Source: Neisseria sp.
GTDB taxonomy: Bacteria; Pseudomonadota; Gammaproteobacteria; Burkholderiales; Neisseriaceae
Assembly (NCBI RefSeq): GCF_030530745.1
Contig: NZ_JAUMUI010000004.1
Span: 24,159 to 88,158, forward strand
DNA: 64,000 bases
Reading direction: 5' to 3'
Shown here: piece after piece, positions 32,852-47,346 of the stretch
Layout of the letters: each line of letters begins with the position of its first letter
How positions within the stretch are numbered: the first letter of the stretch is position 1
The notes under the pieces: generated by a model
What the model was told of the DNA's origin: nothing
Database searches by the model: none
Seen by the model: the letters and a program-made list of their open reading frames with translations, nothing else
Position numbers and translations under genes: made by a program

Positions 32852-34189
32852 TCAAAACAGCAGCATGCCCACTTTGCGTATTTTCTCTTCGTCATTCAAT
32901 ACCCCCGCGTTTTGCAGCAGCTGCAGGTAGGATTGGATATAGGTGTATTTGGCCTCGGCGAGTTTTTGCTCTGCGTCGGCTTTTTCCTGTTGTGCCTGAG
33001 TTTCTTCAAGGTTGTTGCGCACGCCGACCTGACGCCCCAGCCGTGTGGCTTCCAGTTTGGCGCGGTTGGTTTCGAGCAGGCGCTGCTGGGCGAGCGTTTG
33101 GATTTTGCTGCTGCGGGTGGTTTGATAGGCCTGCCTTACCGCCAGCCGCACTTTGCGCTCCGTTGCGGTGAGCAGGTCTTTATTCTGCATTTCGCGCGAA
33201 GCGGCCTCGCGGATCTGGCTGGAGATTTTGCCGCCGCTGAAAAGCGGCATACTGAGCTGGAAGTTTACCGTACCGCCTTTGCTGCGGTAGGTTTGATCGA
33301 AGCTTTCACCGAAATAATCCTGGCTGCGGTGGGTATTGCGGTCGTCCTGATAGCCGCCGCTTACGGTGAGCGTGGGCATACGGCTGCCTTTGGCGGCTTT
33401 GAACGCCTGTTTTGCATCTTCGAGGGTTTTGCGCTGCAGCTGCCATTCGGGATTGTGCCGCTCGGCCAGCGCCTGCCATTCCCGTTCTTCCGATTCGCCG
33501 AGCAGGTCGGCCAGCGCCTTATCGTTTTTTACCGGGCTGATTTGCTGCGGATCCAGCCCGGTCAGGTTGGCCAGCGTGTTTTCGGCCACCTGAAGCTGGG
33601 TGAGCGCGTCGATTTCTTTGGCAAGGGCCGCATCGTAGCCGGATTTGGCCTCGTGGGTGTCCAGAATTGTTGCCGCCCCCTGCCGGAACATTTCCTGCGC
33701 CCGCTCGAGCTGCCGGGAATAAGCGGCTTTTTCGTCGGCGATGGCGGCCAGCTTGTCTTTATTCAGCAGAATATCGAAATAGGCCTTGGCCACGTTTATT
33801 TTCAATTCGTCTTCACTGCCGCTCAGGCGCGCATCGGCCATTTCGGCGGCGATTTTTCCCTGTTTGTATTGGGCGAAGCGGGTTCTGTCGAACAAAACCT
33901 GCGAAGCCTGCACGTTCCAGCCGCGGCTTTTCGTGTTGGAAGAGAGCGAATAGGGCTGGCGCTGGTAGGTGGCGTTGGCATTAACCTGCGGCAGCAGCTC
34001 CGCACGCGCCTGGTTCTTTTTTTCCGATTCCGCATCACGCTCGTGTTTGGCAGCAGAAAAATCGGCCGAATAGTTCACAGCGGCCCGCCATGCGTCCAGC
34101 AGATTGAAGGCGTGGGAAGCGGCGGGCAGCGCGAGCATGCACGAAGAAAACAGCAGGGGCAGTGTTTTAAATTTGGCCATGGCAGACAA
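32852..34189 (-). CDS. tolC: TolC-family outer-membrane channel (type I secretion / efflux)
   Basis: Signal peptide ending AASHA, two OEP repeats, coiled-coil Q/L/A-rich segments. Confidence 0.8.
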   Translation of the reverse strand: MSAMAKFKTLPLLFSSCMLALPAASHAFNLLDAWRAAVNYSADFSAAKHERDAESEKKNQARAELLPQVNANATYQRQPYSLSSNTKSRGWNVQASQVLFDRTRFAQYKQGKIAAEMADARLSGSEDELKINVAKAYFDILLNKDKLAAIADEKAAYSRQLERAQEMFRQGAATILDTHEAKSGYDAALAKEIDALTQLQVAENTLANLTGLDPQQISPVKNDKALADLLGESEEREWQALAERHNPEWQLQRKTLEDAKQAFKAAKGSRMPTLTVSGGYQDDRNTHRSQDYFGESFDQTYRSKGGTVNFQLSMPLFSGGKISSQIREAASREMQNKDLLTATERKVRLAVRQAYQTTRSSKIQTLAQQRLLETNRAKLEATRLGRQVGVRNNLEETQAQQEKADAEQKLAEAKYTYIQSYLQLLQNAGVLNDEEKIRKVGMLLF

Positions 34190-34585
34190 TGATAATGAAA
34201 TATTAACCTGACTTAGAGTGTTTTCGGGCCGGATAGTTTAATTTTTTTGAAATTTACCCTGTATGGATATTCGAAAAGTATATTGCAGGCCGCAAGATAA
34301 TTTTCAATATATTTTTTCAGGAAACTGTTTTTGGAAAAACGGTTTACATTCACATAGGGTTACCCGAATGTTTTAGAGGCGGGCATGCCGTGTTTTTCGG
34401 AAAACCTCCTTTTTATTCTTACGGATAACGGTAAATAACTTATTTTATTATCATATAGATTAATTGATTGGATTTTTCGGGAACCAAACAAAACCTAACG
34501 AACAAAACGGCGGGCGGAGTTGTCGTAAAACCACGGAGCCCGGCAACGGGTTTCCGGGTTTTTATTAATTTTCAAGGAGACTGTA

Positions 34586-34759
34586 ATGAAACAACTCAAC
34601 CAGCATGAGATGCAGCAGGTGGCCGGCGGCTACAGATGGAGCGATTTCCGCAAAGACTGGAAAGACTTCTGGAAAGAAATGGGCGGCGGTTTCTCCAAGG
34701 CCGGCGACAACCTCGGCGACGCATGGAAAAACGCCCGCGATGCGGTTCGTAACAATTAA
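34586..34759 (+). CDS. Double-glycine-leader peptide (class II microcin-like) MKQLNQHEMQQVAGG|YRWSDFRKDWKDFWKEMGGGFSKAGDNLGDAWKNARDAVRNN
   Basis: 15-aa leader matching the GG-leader consensus (L..E...V.GG); RBS aaggag 7 nt upstream; core 42 aa, Trp/Lys-rich. Confidence 0.7.
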   Translation: MKQLNQHEMQQVAGGYRWSDFRKDWKDFWKEMGGGFSKAGDNLGDAWKNARDAVRNN

Positions 34760-34906
34760 GCGGTATTTGGAATTTCGGAGTAGGCGGATTCTGAACCGAA
34801 CGGTTGGTTTCTGCTTTCCGAATCGGGAGGTATCCGTCCTTCCTTAACCGTGTAGCAGCGAAAATTATTGCTGTTTTTAATTTTAACCTTAAAAAGGAGA
34901 TTTGAT

Positions 34907-44927: not shown

Positions 44928-45016
44928 GTTTGAAAATCGAAAACTTTGTTAAATATATTGTTTTATGCCGTCTGAAAACTTCAGACGGCATTTTTCAGAT
45001 ATATTCCAGAATGTTT

Positions 45017-47131
45017 ATGAAACGTTTGAGCTGTTTGTTTTCCGGCTTTCGTAAAAAACTGCCTGTAGTGCTGCAAACCGAAGTGGCCGAATGCGGCCTG
45101 GCTTGTTTGGCCTCGGTTTTGGGGTATTACGGGCACCGTATCGATTTAAGCATACTCCGGCAGAAGTATGCGCTGTCGCTCAAAGGTGCCAATCTTGCCC
45201 ATATCGCACGCTATGCCCATAGTTTGAACCTGAACACGCGCGCGCTGCGCTTGGATCTGGGCGATCTGCCCAACCTGCGCACACCCTGTATCCTGCACTG
45301 GGATTTGAATCATTTTGTGGTATTGCGTTCCGTCGGCATAAATTCCATAACGGTAATGGATCCGGCTTCGGGGTTGCTGAAAGTTGAAATGAAAGAGGTG
45401 TCGCGCAGGTTTACGGGTGTGGCTTTGGAATTGTGGCCGGATAAAAACTTTGAGAAAAAGGAAGAAAGAAACAAGGTTAAAGTTCTGCTGCTGCTTAAAG
45501 ATGCAGTAGGCATTAAGCGTTCGCTGATGCAGATACTGCTGCTGGCGTTTGCGCTGGAAATTTTCGGCCTGACTTCTCCGTTTCTGATGCAGTGGGTTAT
45601 CGATCATGTGGTGGTAACGGCAGACCGTAATCTGCTGCTTATGCTGGTTTTGGGTTTCGGCATGCTGCTGGTTGTGCGGCAGTTGATCGGGCTGTTGCAG
45701 TCGTGGGTGGGAATGCATTTTGCCACTACCCTGAATGCACAGTGGAAAGCCAATATATTTGCAAAAATGCTTGATTTGCCTGCCTCTTATTTTTTCAAAC
45801 GCCACTTGGGCGATGTGGTTTCGCGCTTCGGTGCCATCGACACTATTCAGAAAACACTGACTTCTGCGTTTTTTAAAGTTGTTTTAAACGGCATTATGGC
45901 CGTATTCACCTTTTGGCTGATGATGCTTTACAGCGCGGATCTTTCAATGATTGTGGCCGTCGCGCTGATTCTGTATATCCTGATCCGTACGGCAGCCTAT
46001 TATCCGTTACGGAATACCACCGAGAAAAATATCATTAATACGGCGAAACAAAGCTCTTATTTTATCGAAACAATGCGCGGAATCGGCACGGTGAAATTAT
46101 TCGATAAAACTCCGCAGAGGTTTAATGTATGGATAAGCCTGTTTGTGAACACGGTCAACACGGGGCTGGCGGCACAGAAATTATCGGTTTTATTTAGTTT
46201 TGCCAATTCGTTGATTTTCGGCATAGAAGGCATACTGATCATTTATCTGGGCGCCGACAAGATTCTTGCGGGCGGTTTCACCGTGGGCGCGCTCACGGCA
46301 TTTTGGGCGTATAAAAACCAGTTTGAAGAACGAGTGGGCGAGCTGGTCGACCAATACATCAAAATCCGCATGCTGGGTCTGCACGCCGAGCGTCTGGCCG
46401 ACATCGTGCTCACCGAAACCGAAACGGAAAAAACCAAAGAAATTTATGTTCCCGAGGTTGAGGGGGACATCGATATTGCGGTGGAAGACGTATCGTTCCG
46501 CTATTCCGACACCGAGCCGTATATTCTGAAAAACATCAGCCTGCATATCAGGCAGGGCGAATCGGTGGCGTTTACCGGCAGCTCGGGCTGCGGCAAAACC
46601 ACGCTGATGAACATCTTAATCGGCAACCTTGCGCCCGAATCGGGCAAAGTGCTGGTAAACGGGCACGACATCCACAAACTTTCACCGCGCTTTATCCGCG
46701 GGTTGAGCGGCACGGTAACGCAGGATGATGTGTTGTTTGCCGGCTCGATAGCGGAAAACATCTGCTTTTTCGACGAAACGCCCGACCAGCAGAAGATTAT
46801 GCAGTGCGCGGCGATGGCGCAGATACACGAAGACATCATGCAGATGACCATGGGCTACGAAACCCTGATAGGCGACATGGGCAACGCCCTGTCGGGCGGA
46901 CAGAAGCAGCGGATTATTCTGGCGCGCGCGCTTTACCGCGAGCCGAAGATACTGTTTCTCGACGAGGCGACAAGCCATTTGGATATGGAAAACGAGCGGG
47001 CGATCAACGAAAACCTGAAGCGGTTGAACATTACCAAAATCATGGTTGCGCACCGCAGGGAAACGATTGAGTCGGCCGACAGGGTGGTGGATATGGAGGC
47101 GCTGGCGCACAGGGAGGGTCAGGAAGGGTAG
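45017..47131 (+). CDS. cvaB: Peptidase-C39-domain ABC transporter, CvaB-like copy 2 (N-terminal two-thirds diverged, C-terminal ~290 aa identical to copy 1)
   Basis: LQTEVAECGLACLASV, PCILHWDLNHFVVL; nucleotides ~46247-47116 identical to ~42996-43865 apart from one codon. Confidence 0.85.
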   Translation: MKRLSCLFSGFRKKLPVVLQTEVAECGLACLASVLGYYGHRIDLSILRQKYALSLKGANLAHIARYAHSLNLNTRALRLDLGDLPNLRTPCILHWDLNHFVVLRSVGINSITVMDPASGLLKVEMKEVSRRFTGVALELWPDKNFEKKEERNKVKVLLLLKDAVGIKRSLMQILLLAFALEIFGLTSPFLMQWVIDHVVVTADRNLLLMLVLGFGMLLVVRQLIGLLQSWVGMHFATTLNAQWKANIFAKMLDLPASYFFKRHLGDVVSRFGAIDTIQKTLTSAFFKVVLNGIMAVFTFWLMMLYSADLSMIVAVALILYILIRTAAYYPLRNTTEKNIINTAKQSSYFIETMRGIGTVKLFDKTPQRFNVWISLFVNTVNTGLAAQKLSVLFSFANSLIFGIEGILIIYLGADKILAGGFTVGALTAFWAYKNQFEERVGELVDQYIKIRMLGLHAERLADIVLTETETEKTKEIYVPEVEGDIDIAVEDVSFRYSDTEPYILKNISLHIRQGESVAFTGSSGCGKTTLMNILIGNLAPESGKVLVNGHDIHKLSPRFIRGLSGTVTQDDVLFAGSIAENICFFDETPDQQKIMQCAAMAQIHEDIMQMTMGYETLIGDMGNALSGGQKQRIILARALYREPKILFLDEATSHLDMENERAINENLKRLNITKIMVAHRRETIESADRVVDMEALAHREGQEG

Positions 47132-47346
47132 GGCGGTTTTGTCGGAAAGGCCGTCTGAAAGTTTGGCTTTCAGACGGCCTTTAATTGTTTAGACCCTAAT
47201 GCTTGGTATATTGCAAGCGGGTAACCGGCCTATTGCTTTTTATTTTTCAATACGATGTTTCAACACACAGGACGACACATAAAGCGCCGCCCTACGTGTT
47301 GCCCTGATTGGGAAGGGGTTACACCCCTACCCGATAAACCCAAATT

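Follow-up and report, generated by a model that had tools for sequence, protein, structure and literature searches.

What is a Neisseria chromosome equipped to make when seventeen short open reading frames (ORFs), each beginning with a double-glycine (GG) leader, are gathered beside the genes of a type I secretion system (T1SS)? Such a cluster occupies positions 32852-47131 of the 64,000-nucleotide stretch of Neisseria sp. DNA analysed here (assembly GCF_030530745.1, contig NZ_JAUMUI010000004.1, positions 24,159 to 88,158), which we call the window and to which coordinates refer unless another locus is named. Judging from the sequence, we consider it likely that the cluster is a chromosomal multi-bacteriocin GG-leader locus that joins an architecture like that of the class II microcins to cores like those of Gram-positive class II bacteriocins. 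The initial annotation had placed a TolC gene, 17 peptide genes, a CvaA protein and two CvaB exporters here and had read them as a T1SS of the class II microcin type. All of these components were recovered where it had put them, and the reading is upheld by their domains, by the C39 peptidase residues, by the collinearity with CvaB and by the hits of three peptides (p13-p15 below) to the class IIb bacteriocin model TIGR03949.

Only the TolC gene is read from the minus strand. The plus strand carries the 17 GG-leader ORFs (p01-p17), one CvaA/HlyD adaptor gene, two genes for ATP-binding cassette (ABC) exporters with a C39 peptidase domain (PCATs) and small membrane ORFs (tmA-tmF), in the order p01, p02, tmA, tmB, p03-p12, p13-tmC-p14, p15-tmD-p16, CvaA, tmE, CvaB1, tmF, p17, CvaB2, with p03-p12 forming an uninterrupted run of ten peptide genes. 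The pattern M-[KR]-E-L-x3-[ED]-L-x2-[VI]-[SA]-G-G picks out exactly 17 plus-strand ORFs of 33-117 aa, whose common leader is M-K/R-E-L-N-x-x-E/D-L-x-x-V/I-S/A-G-G. Position -2 is Gly in 17/17 and position -1 in 16/17 (Ser in p10), and V/I at -4, E/D at -8 and L/I at -12 are likewise found in 17/17; the leader is 15 aa long in 14 peptides and 24-26 aa in the other 3, all of them matching the consensus. A Shine-Dalgarno (SD) sequence (GGAG/AGGA/GAGG) lies 6-11 nt upstream of the start in 16/17 and is weak in p10. Across the 10.7 kb of 34190-44930 the leader expression matched 20 times (the 17 genes and 3 nested or false hits), compared with 0.67 +/- 0.79 matches, and a maximum of 4, in 200 dinucleotide shuffles; when an SD was also required, 16 were observed against 0.06 in the shuffles, and the other 53 kb of the window gave 3 hits, 0 with an SD. 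Because the leader hits far exceed those of the shuffles and the rest of the window is devoid of SD-bearing ones, the earlier observation of good ribosome-binding sites and GG leaders is confirmed in full, 17/17 for the leaders and 16/17 for the SD.

All 17 peptide ORFs are intact, with start, leader and stop. The tract was also described as AT-rich, and it is: the GC content of the array is 0.449, against 0.537 for the whole window, which holds 80 DNA-uptake sequences (DUS) of the AG-DUS dialect. The only convincing terminators in the array are of the DUS-pair type. Three longer ORFs, 36064-36378 (-), 37436-37795 (-) and 37766-38095 (+), were rejected as genes, having no family hits and overlapping repeats and peptide genes. 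In GenBank, 6 of the peptides are present as exact sequences (MDO4906689-698), two of them already named class IIb bacteriocins, whereas exact look-ups of p09, p11, p12 and p01 in the protein collection failed, and p03, p07, p08 and p13 are numbered consecutively, with no accession free for p04-p06 and p09-p12. From these failed look-ups and the gapless numbering, about half of the peptide genes (apparently p04-p06 and p09-p12) were probably not called by NCBI.

The processing and export machinery can be identified, from homology and motifs, with something close to certainty. The channel scores 231.2 bits against the NCBIfam model TIGR01844 (type_I_sec_TolC; cut-off 225.15). CvaA, the only adaptor in the locus, is 90% identical to that of N. 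musculi, 41% to McbA of Moraxella catarrhalis and 27% to Escherichia coli CvaA. Both exporters match Pfam Peptidase_C39 (CvaB1 2.4e-36, CvaB2 1.2e-33). Residues Q20, C26, H99 and D115 of CvaB1 align with Q11, C17, H96 and D112 of ComA and with the catalytic residues of LahT150, and CvaB2 keeps the C39 motifs QTEVAECG, LNHFVVL and VMDP; the catalytic Gln, Cys, His and Asp are present in both proteins, unlike the C39-like domain of HlyB, which lacks the Cys. The Walker A, Q-loop, signature, Walker B and H-loop motifs are also readable in both (GSSGCGKT, TVTQD, LSGGQKQR, ILFLDEATS and VAHR), and each protein therefore combines, as PCATs do, the C39 catalytic set with a type I exporter transmembrane domain (TMD) and a complete nucleotide-binding domain. 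CvaB1 matches PCAT1 (4ry2) from end to end (2.7e-93), is 55% identical to McbB of M. catarrhalis pLQ510 and is collinear with E. coli CvaB, as described, at 41.6% identity across 97% of its length. Class II microcin export calls for a linked PCAT and membrane fusion protein together with a TolC partner, and here even the TolC gene is adjacent.

That adjacency is conserved: DNA matches put TolC on the corresponding side of cvaA in five fetched loci (L001, L002, L004, L005 and L008), and a gene of the OEP family stands directly beside the first peptide gene in L081, L083/L084 and L086-L088. The claim that this TolC is dedicated to the locus found no such support. About 2 kb downstream, at 49025-54550 (+), lies a gene for an 1841-aa protein with RTX calcium-binding repeats, long repeated N-terminal modules and a zinc-protease-like HExxHxxGxxH motif (HEVTHTLGMTH). 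Because no HlyB/HlyD genes accompany it in the window, the RTX protein may use the TolC of the locus.

The second exporter is a chimera. The two PCAT genes share about 70% of their nucleotides up to 42992 and then switch abruptly to 100%, the last 874 nt of cvaB2 (46244-47117) being identical to 42993-43866 of cvaB1. By contrast, over its N-terminal 400 aa CvaB2 shares 67% of residues with CvaB1 and no more than 71% with any locus fetched; the closest is the PCAT of a metagenome-assembled genome (MAG) locus that encodes long Gly-rich peptides like p17. The pattern points to an ATPase half of cvaB2 that arose by gene conversion or by partial duplication, with the proviso that its exactness could be inflated by assembly. 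A contig from another run, SRR24915806 (L080, 99.94% identical), joins the cvaB1 3' end, tmF, p17 and the 5' half of cvaB2, and N. musculi lacks the tmF-p17-cvaB2 module. At 44965-44991, after the p17 stop and before the cvaB2 start, lies an inverted AT-DUS pair (ATGCCGTCTGAA), one of only two in a window that has 4 AT-DUS and 57 AG-DUS; because such pairs are rare here, there is a hint that the module derives from a Neisseria lineage of the AT-DUS dialect. Gene position, leader subtype (MFELEIRDLEVVSGG in p17 versus MKELNQxELEQVSGG in the array) and a published length limit together suggest that CvaB1 probably handles the 16 upstream short cargos (18-58 aa) and CvaB2 the 102-aa p17. The limit comes from the T1SS of microcin V (MccV), which exported cargos of 26-66 aa whatever their composition and did so less well at 116 aa (PMC10231218), so that a separate PCAT beside p17 fits; natural T1SSs of this type are usually paired with a single cargo (PMC10231218).

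The predicted mature cores are 18-102 aa long (2.3-9.6 kDa) and thus share with class II microcins, defined by a mass below 10 kDa and a GG leader of 15-19 aa, both size and leader type. The Gly/Ala-rich, hydrophobic p02 and p13-p17 carry GxxxG motifs; p04, p06, p09 and the C-terminus of p03 are cationic (net charge +4 to +8) and probably helical; p10, p12, p11 and the N-terminus of p03 are Pro/Trp-rich and cationic, with up to 32% Pro; p01 alone is conserved, Trp-rich and charged; and p07 and p08 are singletons. Two Cys each occur in p02 and p04. The NCBIfam class IIb model TIGR03949 is passed by p13, p14 and p15, and the generic leader model TIGR01847 by p05, p13 and p15. In the pairs p13-tmC-p14 and p15-tmD-p16 every peptide has 2-3 GxxxG motifs and a DUS terminator follows each pair, an arrangement that agrees with class IIb two-peptide systems (adjacent GxxxG genes and an immunity gene in one operon) except that the immunity-like ORF lies between the peptides and not after them. 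No enzyme-sized gene for a modification enzyme is encoded between tolC and cvaA or around cvaB2, and other ORFs of at least 100 aa in the array have no Pfam hit and overlap peptide genes or repeat elements; the peptides are for this reason presumed to be unmodified. A lanthipeptide or other array of ribosomally synthesised and post-translationally modified peptides was rejected on the same ground, TIGR04149 and TIGR04497 hits being far below their cut-offs, as was a siderophore-microcin (class IIb microcin) locus, there being no modification genes and no such tail evident in the cores.

Homology outside the leader is sparse. Pfam returned nothing, or hits below threshold, for the peptides and the small membrane ORFs. 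p02 has a weak MccV-like N-terminal similarity (34% over 64 aa), and p02 and p13-p17 reach 34-40% against CvaC with E-values that are meaningful only against a 4-sequence database; the CvaC match consists of the leader and a low-complexity Gly-rich stretch only, and this comparison covered CvaC and not the other microcins individually. Relatives of p17 at 30-37% (including L005, L006, L008, Cardiobacterium L010 and Acinetobacter L014) were seen only in a small local BLAST search of the loci, in which kinship among long Gly-rich peptides is prone to compositional effects. Other peptides are better connected. The most conserved, p01, shares 79-81% of its residues with the counterparts in N. musculi, N. 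oralis and N. sicca and 40% with that in N. wadsworthii, and in a 5.8-billion-protein database it has only 8 clusters, the sole source-named one being from N. sicca. p07 is 79% identical in N. musculi and 68% in N. oralis, and p08 has two paralogues in L083/L084. Conservation of p01, p07 and tmB at 68-89% across species supports them as real genes. p01 is also the first gene after tolC in the window, L001, L004, L008 and L087, and has no immunity-like neighbour; it may be a conserved effector, a helper or a signal.

Candidates for immunity are the six ORFs tmA-tmF, which have 1-2 hydrophobic segments for a total of 17 peptides; none has a family hit. They accompany the Gly/Ala-rich peptides and p03/p17, and several are closely coupled to their neighbours, with the tmB stop overlapping the p03 start, tmF ending 2 nt before p17 (an order also found in the independent contig L080) and tmC and tmD nested in the pairs. 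tmB is 89% identical in N. musculi and has relatives at 32-34% beside Gly-rich peptides in L004 and L006. tmE sits in a 36% GC insert (41268-41765) between cvaA and cvaB1; in L001, L002, L004 and L008 the DNA matches to the two genes abut within about 10 nt; the MAG locus L003 has a 69% identical ORF at the same position, and for that reason tmE may be an orphan immunity gene. The interspersed small membrane peptides of the initial annotation are therefore real, although none lies between p05 and p12, and its classic toxin-immunity layout describes about half of the array and not the rest. For the Gly-rich peptides with candidate immunity partners, an antibacterial function is likely.

The locus type is conserved in several commensal Neisseria, and the impression of a unique locus in the genus did not survive the comparison. 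Our genome scan was seeded on exact 8-residue words of the window's CvaA and kept 80 of 437 loci; it is a sample and not a census, and the window's array is the largest only among the loci retrieved. The order TolC-array-CvaA-CvaB recurs in N. musculi (5 peptides, one PCAT), N. oralis (5), N. wadsworthii (6), N. sicca 4320 (4-5) and several metagenomic contigs (3 each). In N. musculi it occupies the same chromosomal site, with flanks 82-92% identical in nucleotide sequence: a UDP-sugar dehydrogenase gene, ribD, a hypothetical gene and nrdR on one side and flavin reductase and MarR genes on the other. We accordingly rejected the view that the locus as a whole arrived on a mobile island in this lineage, since N. 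musculi has it at the same nrdR-tolC...flavin reductase/MarR site; by this comparison the only lineage-specific insertions are the tmF-p17-cvaB2 module and tmE. Two further assemblies, GCA_041792455.1 (L083 10001-13270) and GCA_041831595.1 (L084 9697-12944), have the same ribD-nrdR-tolC flank followed by at least 11 GG peptides, among them two p08-like and several Pro/Trp-rich (WPWPW-type) ones, before the contigs end inside the array, so large arrays are not unique to the window: they recur and break short-read assemblies. Searches of open-access text found no paper describing TolC-linked arrays of commensal Neisseria. As for the pathogens, said to carry only degenerate remnants, this holds for N. 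gonorrhoeae DSM 9188 (L011 12117-14201), in which cvaB is split into ORFs of 139 and 536 aa while a 424-aa adaptor and two long Gly-rich GG peptides are retained, but not for N. meningitidis 8013, MC58 and FAM18, whose units are complete (PMC2784325; PMC9263626).

How such an array is built can be read from its repeats and from conspecific contigs. A nested, locus-specific palindromic element of about 85 nt (CGTAGGGTGTGCGGC...GCCGCACACCCTGCG) is, as a rule, fused with an AG-DUS inverted repeat scored as a terminator. Besides the best copy (Table 1), it occurs at 36124-36200, 37190-37267 and 39652-39778, with partial copies at 36499-36547 and 38012-38077; copies thus follow p04, p09, p14 and p16, and partial ones p06 and p12. 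The array holds 10/16 of the window's near-matches, against 2.2 expected, and the element folds at -76 kcal/mol (z = -9). Among 88 fetched loci it recurs only in N. musculi, where a single copy lies just upstream of cvaA, and in conspecific contigs. Scanned against Rfam (E <= 0.1), the 32-49 kb stretch yielded only a spurious retroviral hit, whose 22 bits fall short of the gathering score of 105, and the element thus matches no Rfam family. Its role may be to mark the junctions of cassettes, or else to stabilise transcripts or end them.

A tandem duplication of a unit of about 860 nt produced 38008-38871 (p13-tmC-p14) and 38872-39735 (p15-tmD-p16). The 290-nt upstream/leader portion is about 90% identical between the two copies, but identity drops to about 50% in the cores and in the small membrane ORF; the duplicated peptide-immunity-peptide unit is, as far as these identities go, a conserved regulatory and leader module with a diversified payload. 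Similarly, the leaders and upstream 65 nt of p04 and p09 are 92% identical but their cores are unrelated. Contigs of the same species from three other sequencing runs (97-99.9% identical) reveal strain differences. In L081 (2089-3340, corresponding to 34747-36124 of the window), p02+tmA and p03+p04 are swapped for two other GG peptides, one of them allelic to an N. musculi peptide, while tmB between the swaps is retained, the flanks are 97% identical in nucleotide sequence, and p01, tmB and p05-p09 are 94-97% identical. By contrast, p05 is identical in L081, p09 in L081 and L082, and p10 in L082, and p06 differs from L081 at one third codon position that leaves the protein unchanged. Over p05-p10 the differences amount to 1.4% in coding and 5.2% in intergenic sequence, with the p05, p06, p09 and p10 proteins unchanged, and p05-p10 are on this comparison under purifying selection. 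The C-termini of p11 and p12 (37721-37750 and 37983-38006) are frameshifted relative to L082 (920-1313) by small indels near the 3' end, which suggests relaxed constraint or variable tails. Taken together, these comparisons identify the array as a mosaic of cassettes punctuated by the palindromic element and DUS terminators.

From this gene content we infer how expression, cleavage, export, killing and immunity would proceed. Seventeen unmodified prepeptides would be made on the ribosome, and their 15-26-aa leaders, with hydrophobic residues at -4, -7 and -12, an acidic one at -8 and GG at -2/-1, would dock in the C39 domain of a PCAT. The PCAT would cut after Gly-Gly, and the 18-102-aa cores would cross both membranes through a PCAT-CvaA-TolC conduit in one ATP-driven step. 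CvaB1 would probably serve the 16 upstream short cargos (18-58 aa), and CvaB2, with its own peptidase/transmembrane half and a gene-converted ATPase half, would share CvaA and TolC and probably serve the adjacent p17. The Gly/Ala-rich GxxxG peptides (p02 and p13-p17, including the two class IIb-like pairs) would attack the membranes of related bacteria, whereas tmA-tmF, encoded next to them, would protect the producer. The array itself would evolve by cassette replacement between leader/promoter modules and palindrome/DUS junctions.

Table 1. Features of the locus in window coordinates, with the observation on which each row is based
Feature	Position	Strand	Basis
TolC-family outer membrane channel, 445 aa, Sec signal peptide	32852..34189	-	Pfam OEP 1.8e-61; divergent from array
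p01: GG leader; 42-aa core, Trp-rich, charged (YRWSDFRKDWKDFWKEMG...)	34586..34759	+	leader, SD
p02: 25-aa leader; 58-aa core, 31% Gly, 29% Ala, 2 Cys, 8 GxxxG	34907..35158	+	leader, SD
tmA: 57 aa, 2 hydrophobic segments; candidate immunity	35246..35419	+	hydropathy
tmB: 70 aa, 2 hydrophobic segments; candidate immunity	35496..35708	+	hydropathy; stop overlaps p03 start (ATGA)
p03: 34-aa core, net charge +7, PFPPPPP then amphipathic helix	35705..35854	+	GenBank MDO4906689, hypothetical
p04: 57-aa core, net charge +5; 3' end enters palindromic element	35955..36173	+	leader, SD
p05: 18-aa core	36248..36349	+	TIGR01847 bacteriocin_sig 18.5 bits vs 15.7 cut-off
p06: 24-aa cationic core	36358..36477	+	leader, SD
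p07: 47-aa core	36576..36764	+	homologues in N. musculi, N. oralis
p08: 30-aa core, poly-Gly tail, 40% Gly	36792..36929	+	leader, SD
p09: 38-aa core, net charge +8	37027..37188	+	leader, SD
p10: leader end GGS; 25-aa core, 32% Pro, 8% Trp, net charge +4	37305..37427	+	weak SD
p11: 32-aa core	37607..37750	+	leader, SD
p12: 41-aa core, 27% Pro, WPWPW	37836..38006	+	leader, SD
p13: class IIb (lactobin A/cerein 7B)-type, first of pair 1	38301..38465	+	TIGR03949 33.1 bits vs 21.5; NCBI name same
tmC: 30 aa, single segment, between p13 and p14; candidate immunity	38515..38607	+	hydropathy
p14: class IIb-type, second of pair 1, 3 GxxxG	38645..38815	+	TIGR03949 23.8 bits vs 21.5
p15: class IIb-type, first of pair 2	39165..39320	+	TIGR03949 39.1 bits vs 21.5
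tmD: 31 aa, single segment; candidate immunity	39343..39438	+	hydropathy
p16: Gly/Ala-rich, second of pair 2	39457..39648	+	TIGR03949 13.0 bits, below 21.5 cut-off
CvaA-like membrane fusion protein, 430 aa, N-terminal transmembrane helix	39975..41267	+	Pfam HlyD_3, HlyD_D23
tmE: 55 aa, 2 hydrophobic segments; candidate orphan immunity gene	41478..41645	+	hydropathy
CvaB1: PCAT, 704 aa	41766..43880	+	Peptidase_C39 + ABC_membrane + ABC_tran
tmF: 72 aa, 2 hydrophobic segments; candidate p17 immunity	44353..44571	+	ends 2 nt before p17
p17: 117 aa; 102-aa Gly/Ala-rich acidic core, pI 5.0	44574..44927	+	GG leader
CvaB2: second PCAT, a chimera	45011..47131	+	Peptidase_C39 + ABC_membrane + ABC_tran
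Palindromic element of ~85 nt with AG-DUS inverted-repeat terminator, best copy	38819..38942	+	alignment, RNA fold, terminator scan

Several observations count against a multi-bacteriocin locus. Most cores are orphans, p12 having no candidates in the 5.8-billion-protein database and p17 only a match to itself, with no significant homologue, in a database-wide search. Of the profile checks proposed at the outset, those for Peptidase_C39, ABC_membrane and HlyD matched, but the peptide hits to Pfam Bacteriocin_IIc stayed below threshold. A promoter scan gave 24 sites against 17 +/- 5.3 in shuffles, which is not above chance, and the division of cargo between the PCATs is pure deduction. p01 and the eight consecutive p05-p12 have no adjacent membrane ORF, which is unusual for self-toxic bacteriocins, and some of the 17 may be decaying, as p04 reads into a repeat and p11 and p12 are frameshifted between strains. 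A 2022 review listed no Neisseria bacteriocin as characterised both genetically and biochemically (PMC9263626), and the cationic GG peptides of the gonococcal nap island have no antibacterial activity but a role in autolysis and haemolysis (PMC11798529). Much of the array (p03-p12 and p01) might accordingly not be antibacterial, supplying instead Nap-like autolytic or host-cell-lytic peptides, or secreted signals, through the same export route; we find this unlikely but worth serious attention. Besides the missing immunity partners, it draws on cores of 18-47 aa with net charges of +2 to +8 that resemble NapA-C in size and charge, Nap peptides being known to spare competitors (PMC11798529), on the pheromone possibility that NeMeSys raised for meningococcal GG peptides (PMC2784325), and on p01, whose conservation at about 80% across four species, set against the hypervariable cores, is more in keeping with a conserved receptor or partner than with an arms race. 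However, the locus has no histidine kinase, response regulator or NapP/NapF/NapH-like genes, and the flanking MarR and flavin reductase genes are flanks common to N. musculi; many peptides with rapid cassette turnover make the pattern of a competition locus and not of signalling, and a producer could be protected otherwise, by having no uptake receptor or by its exporter. The nine partnerless peptides may be signals, lytic peptides of the Nap kind, or bacteriocins against which the producer is protected at the receptor.

We regard it as rather improbable that the array is largely a graveyard, in which a few functional cassettes stand among leader-bearing recombination remnants and a count of 17 effectors is overstated. 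The end of p04 within a repeat element, the strain-specific frameshifts at the C-termini of p11 and p12, the weak SD and GGS site of p10, the 92% identical leader module in front of the unrelated p04 and p09 cores and the probable absence of about half of the peptides from NCBI's calls would all suit this explanation, but 17/17 ORFs are intact and 16 have a good SD, p05-p10 are better conserved than the intergenic DNA between conspecific strains, several of the short Pro/Trp-rich or cationic types are met again, in other allelic forms, in L083/L084, N. musculi and N. sicca, and missed annotation is normal for ORFs below 60 aa. Far less probable still is that the second exporter and the 874-nt identical tract are an assembly artefact of a metagenome-derived contig. 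Exact repeats of this length are prone to collapse and mis-joining, and L080 starts precisely where the repeat does, at 42993, and stops within its second copy; nevertheless L080 comes from a different run and independently makes the join from the cvaB1 3' end through tmF and p17 to the cvaB2 5' half at 99.94%. A second PCAT gene exists because the N-terminal 1.2 kb of cvaB2 is distinct (about 70% of nucleotides and 67% of amino acids shared with cvaB1) and encodes an intact C39 domain and TMD, and assembly could inflate only the exactness of the shared tract. Going beyond the multi-bacteriocin reading, one further idea is attractive but doubtful: that the array is a cassette-exchange system, in which leader modules and palindrome/DUS junctions enable effector swaps by transformation, and that its immunity-less cores act on intracellular targets in the manner of proline-rich antimicrobial peptides, delivered by the T1SS. 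Cassette exchange is what the single-gene replacements between 97% identical strains point to, as do the alleles common to N. musculi. The resemblance of p10 (FRIPAVPLPRLPWLPNRLPWPPIRA), p12 and the p03 N-terminus to eukaryotic proline-rich or indolicidin-like antimicrobial peptides is one of composition only. A corollary, if true, would be that the chimeric CvaB2 is a length-specialised exporter sharing one adaptor and one TolC with CvaB1.

Reports of inhibitory meningocins and gonocins go back to the 1960s, and the locus, together with its relatives in N. musculi, N. oralis and N. sicca, offers at least 17 concrete, presumably unmodified candidate peptides (18-102 aa) for these uncharacterised Neisseria bacteriocins. 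Since about half of the peptide genes were probably left unannotated, surveys of annotated proteins would under-count the arsenals of the genus. N. musculi has been used for in vivo persistence screens (PMC9140248), and because it carries a syntenic locus a role in colonisation may be testable in an animal. Two PCATs that share one adaptor and are distinct only in the peptidase and transmembrane half would furthermore be a natural experiment on the cargo specificity of T1SSs, a matter of relevance to the use of microcin-type T1SSs as secretion chassis (PMC10231218).

Set beside known systems, the locus is an unusually large, mosaic case of a kind that is already familiar. Its peptide repertoire recalls Gram-positive class II loci (pneumococcal blp, plantaricin, salivaricin), in which many GG-leader peptides in mosaic cassettes are handled by one PCAT with many cargos, and Gram-positive class IIb systems, in which two-peptide GxxxG pairs are accompanied by a small immunity protein. 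Those multi-peptide loci are controlled by a peptide pheromone, histidine kinase and response regulator and need no adaptor-TolC conduit, whereas the locus described here lacks such a regulatory module and has its immunity-like ORF between the peptides of a pair.

Closer to home are the polypeptide secretion units of N. meningitidis (NMV_0104-0106 and NMV_1948/1949), which comprise a C39-ABC exporter, an adaptor and GG peptides and are complete in some strains (PMC2784325). Deletion of NMB0097/98 abolished meningocin production, the bacteriocin genes themselves being unknown (PMC9263626). These units, including NMB0091-NMB0098, belong to the same genus as the window and share with it the C39-ABC protein, the adaptor and several Gly-rich peptides with GG or GA leaders; they differ in having five candidate peptides per genome and not 17, all of the long Gly-rich, p17-like kind and none short and cationic or Pro/Trp-rich, and in having TolC encoded elsewhere. 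In the gonococcal counterpart L011, CvaA is 55% and the PCAT 61-69% identical to the window's. The gonococcal nap island, whose NapA-C are 16-36 aa long with a pI of 9-10 (PMC11798529), has in common with the locus short cationic GG-motif peptides, a low-GC region and repeat elements. Its machinery, however, is a stand-alone C39 peptidase (NapP) and a FapF-like channel (NapF) in place of PCAT-CvaA-TolC, and it lies between NEIS0808 (pseudouridine synthase) and NEIS0794 (histidyl-tRNA synthase), while the window's flanks are nrdR/ribD and flavin reductase/MarR. We rejected identity with the nap island on these grounds: C39 domains in the locus are only ABC-fused, the outer membrane protein is only of the TolC/OEP type, and the chromosomal site differs.

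The E. coli microcin V system provides the architectural model, with a collinear CvaB (41.6%), a CvaA (27%), a 15-aa GG leader, an unmodified Gly-rich cargo, TolC-dependent one-step export and a small membrane immunity protein; unlike the locus, it has one cargo per system and an unlinked TolC. The C-terminal part of MccV targets a receptor, and killing is mediated by Cir (PMC12511343); this receptor-targeting part has no counterpart in the window peptides. The nearest genetically proven system is McbABCI of M. catarrhalis, present on plasmid pLQ510 and on the chromosome, for which killing, immunity and the need for the exporter were all shown genetically (PMC2761928). McbC and McbI have no meaningful similarity to the window cores beyond the leader, and the system has a single PCAT, no linked TolC, and one cargo with one immunity gene downstream of the exporter genes. 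Nevertheless, mcbABCI has the same CvaA-like adaptor (41%) followed by a C39-PCAT (55%), an unmodified GG-leader cargo and a small immunity gene, and its host, too, is a commensal of the respiratory tract.

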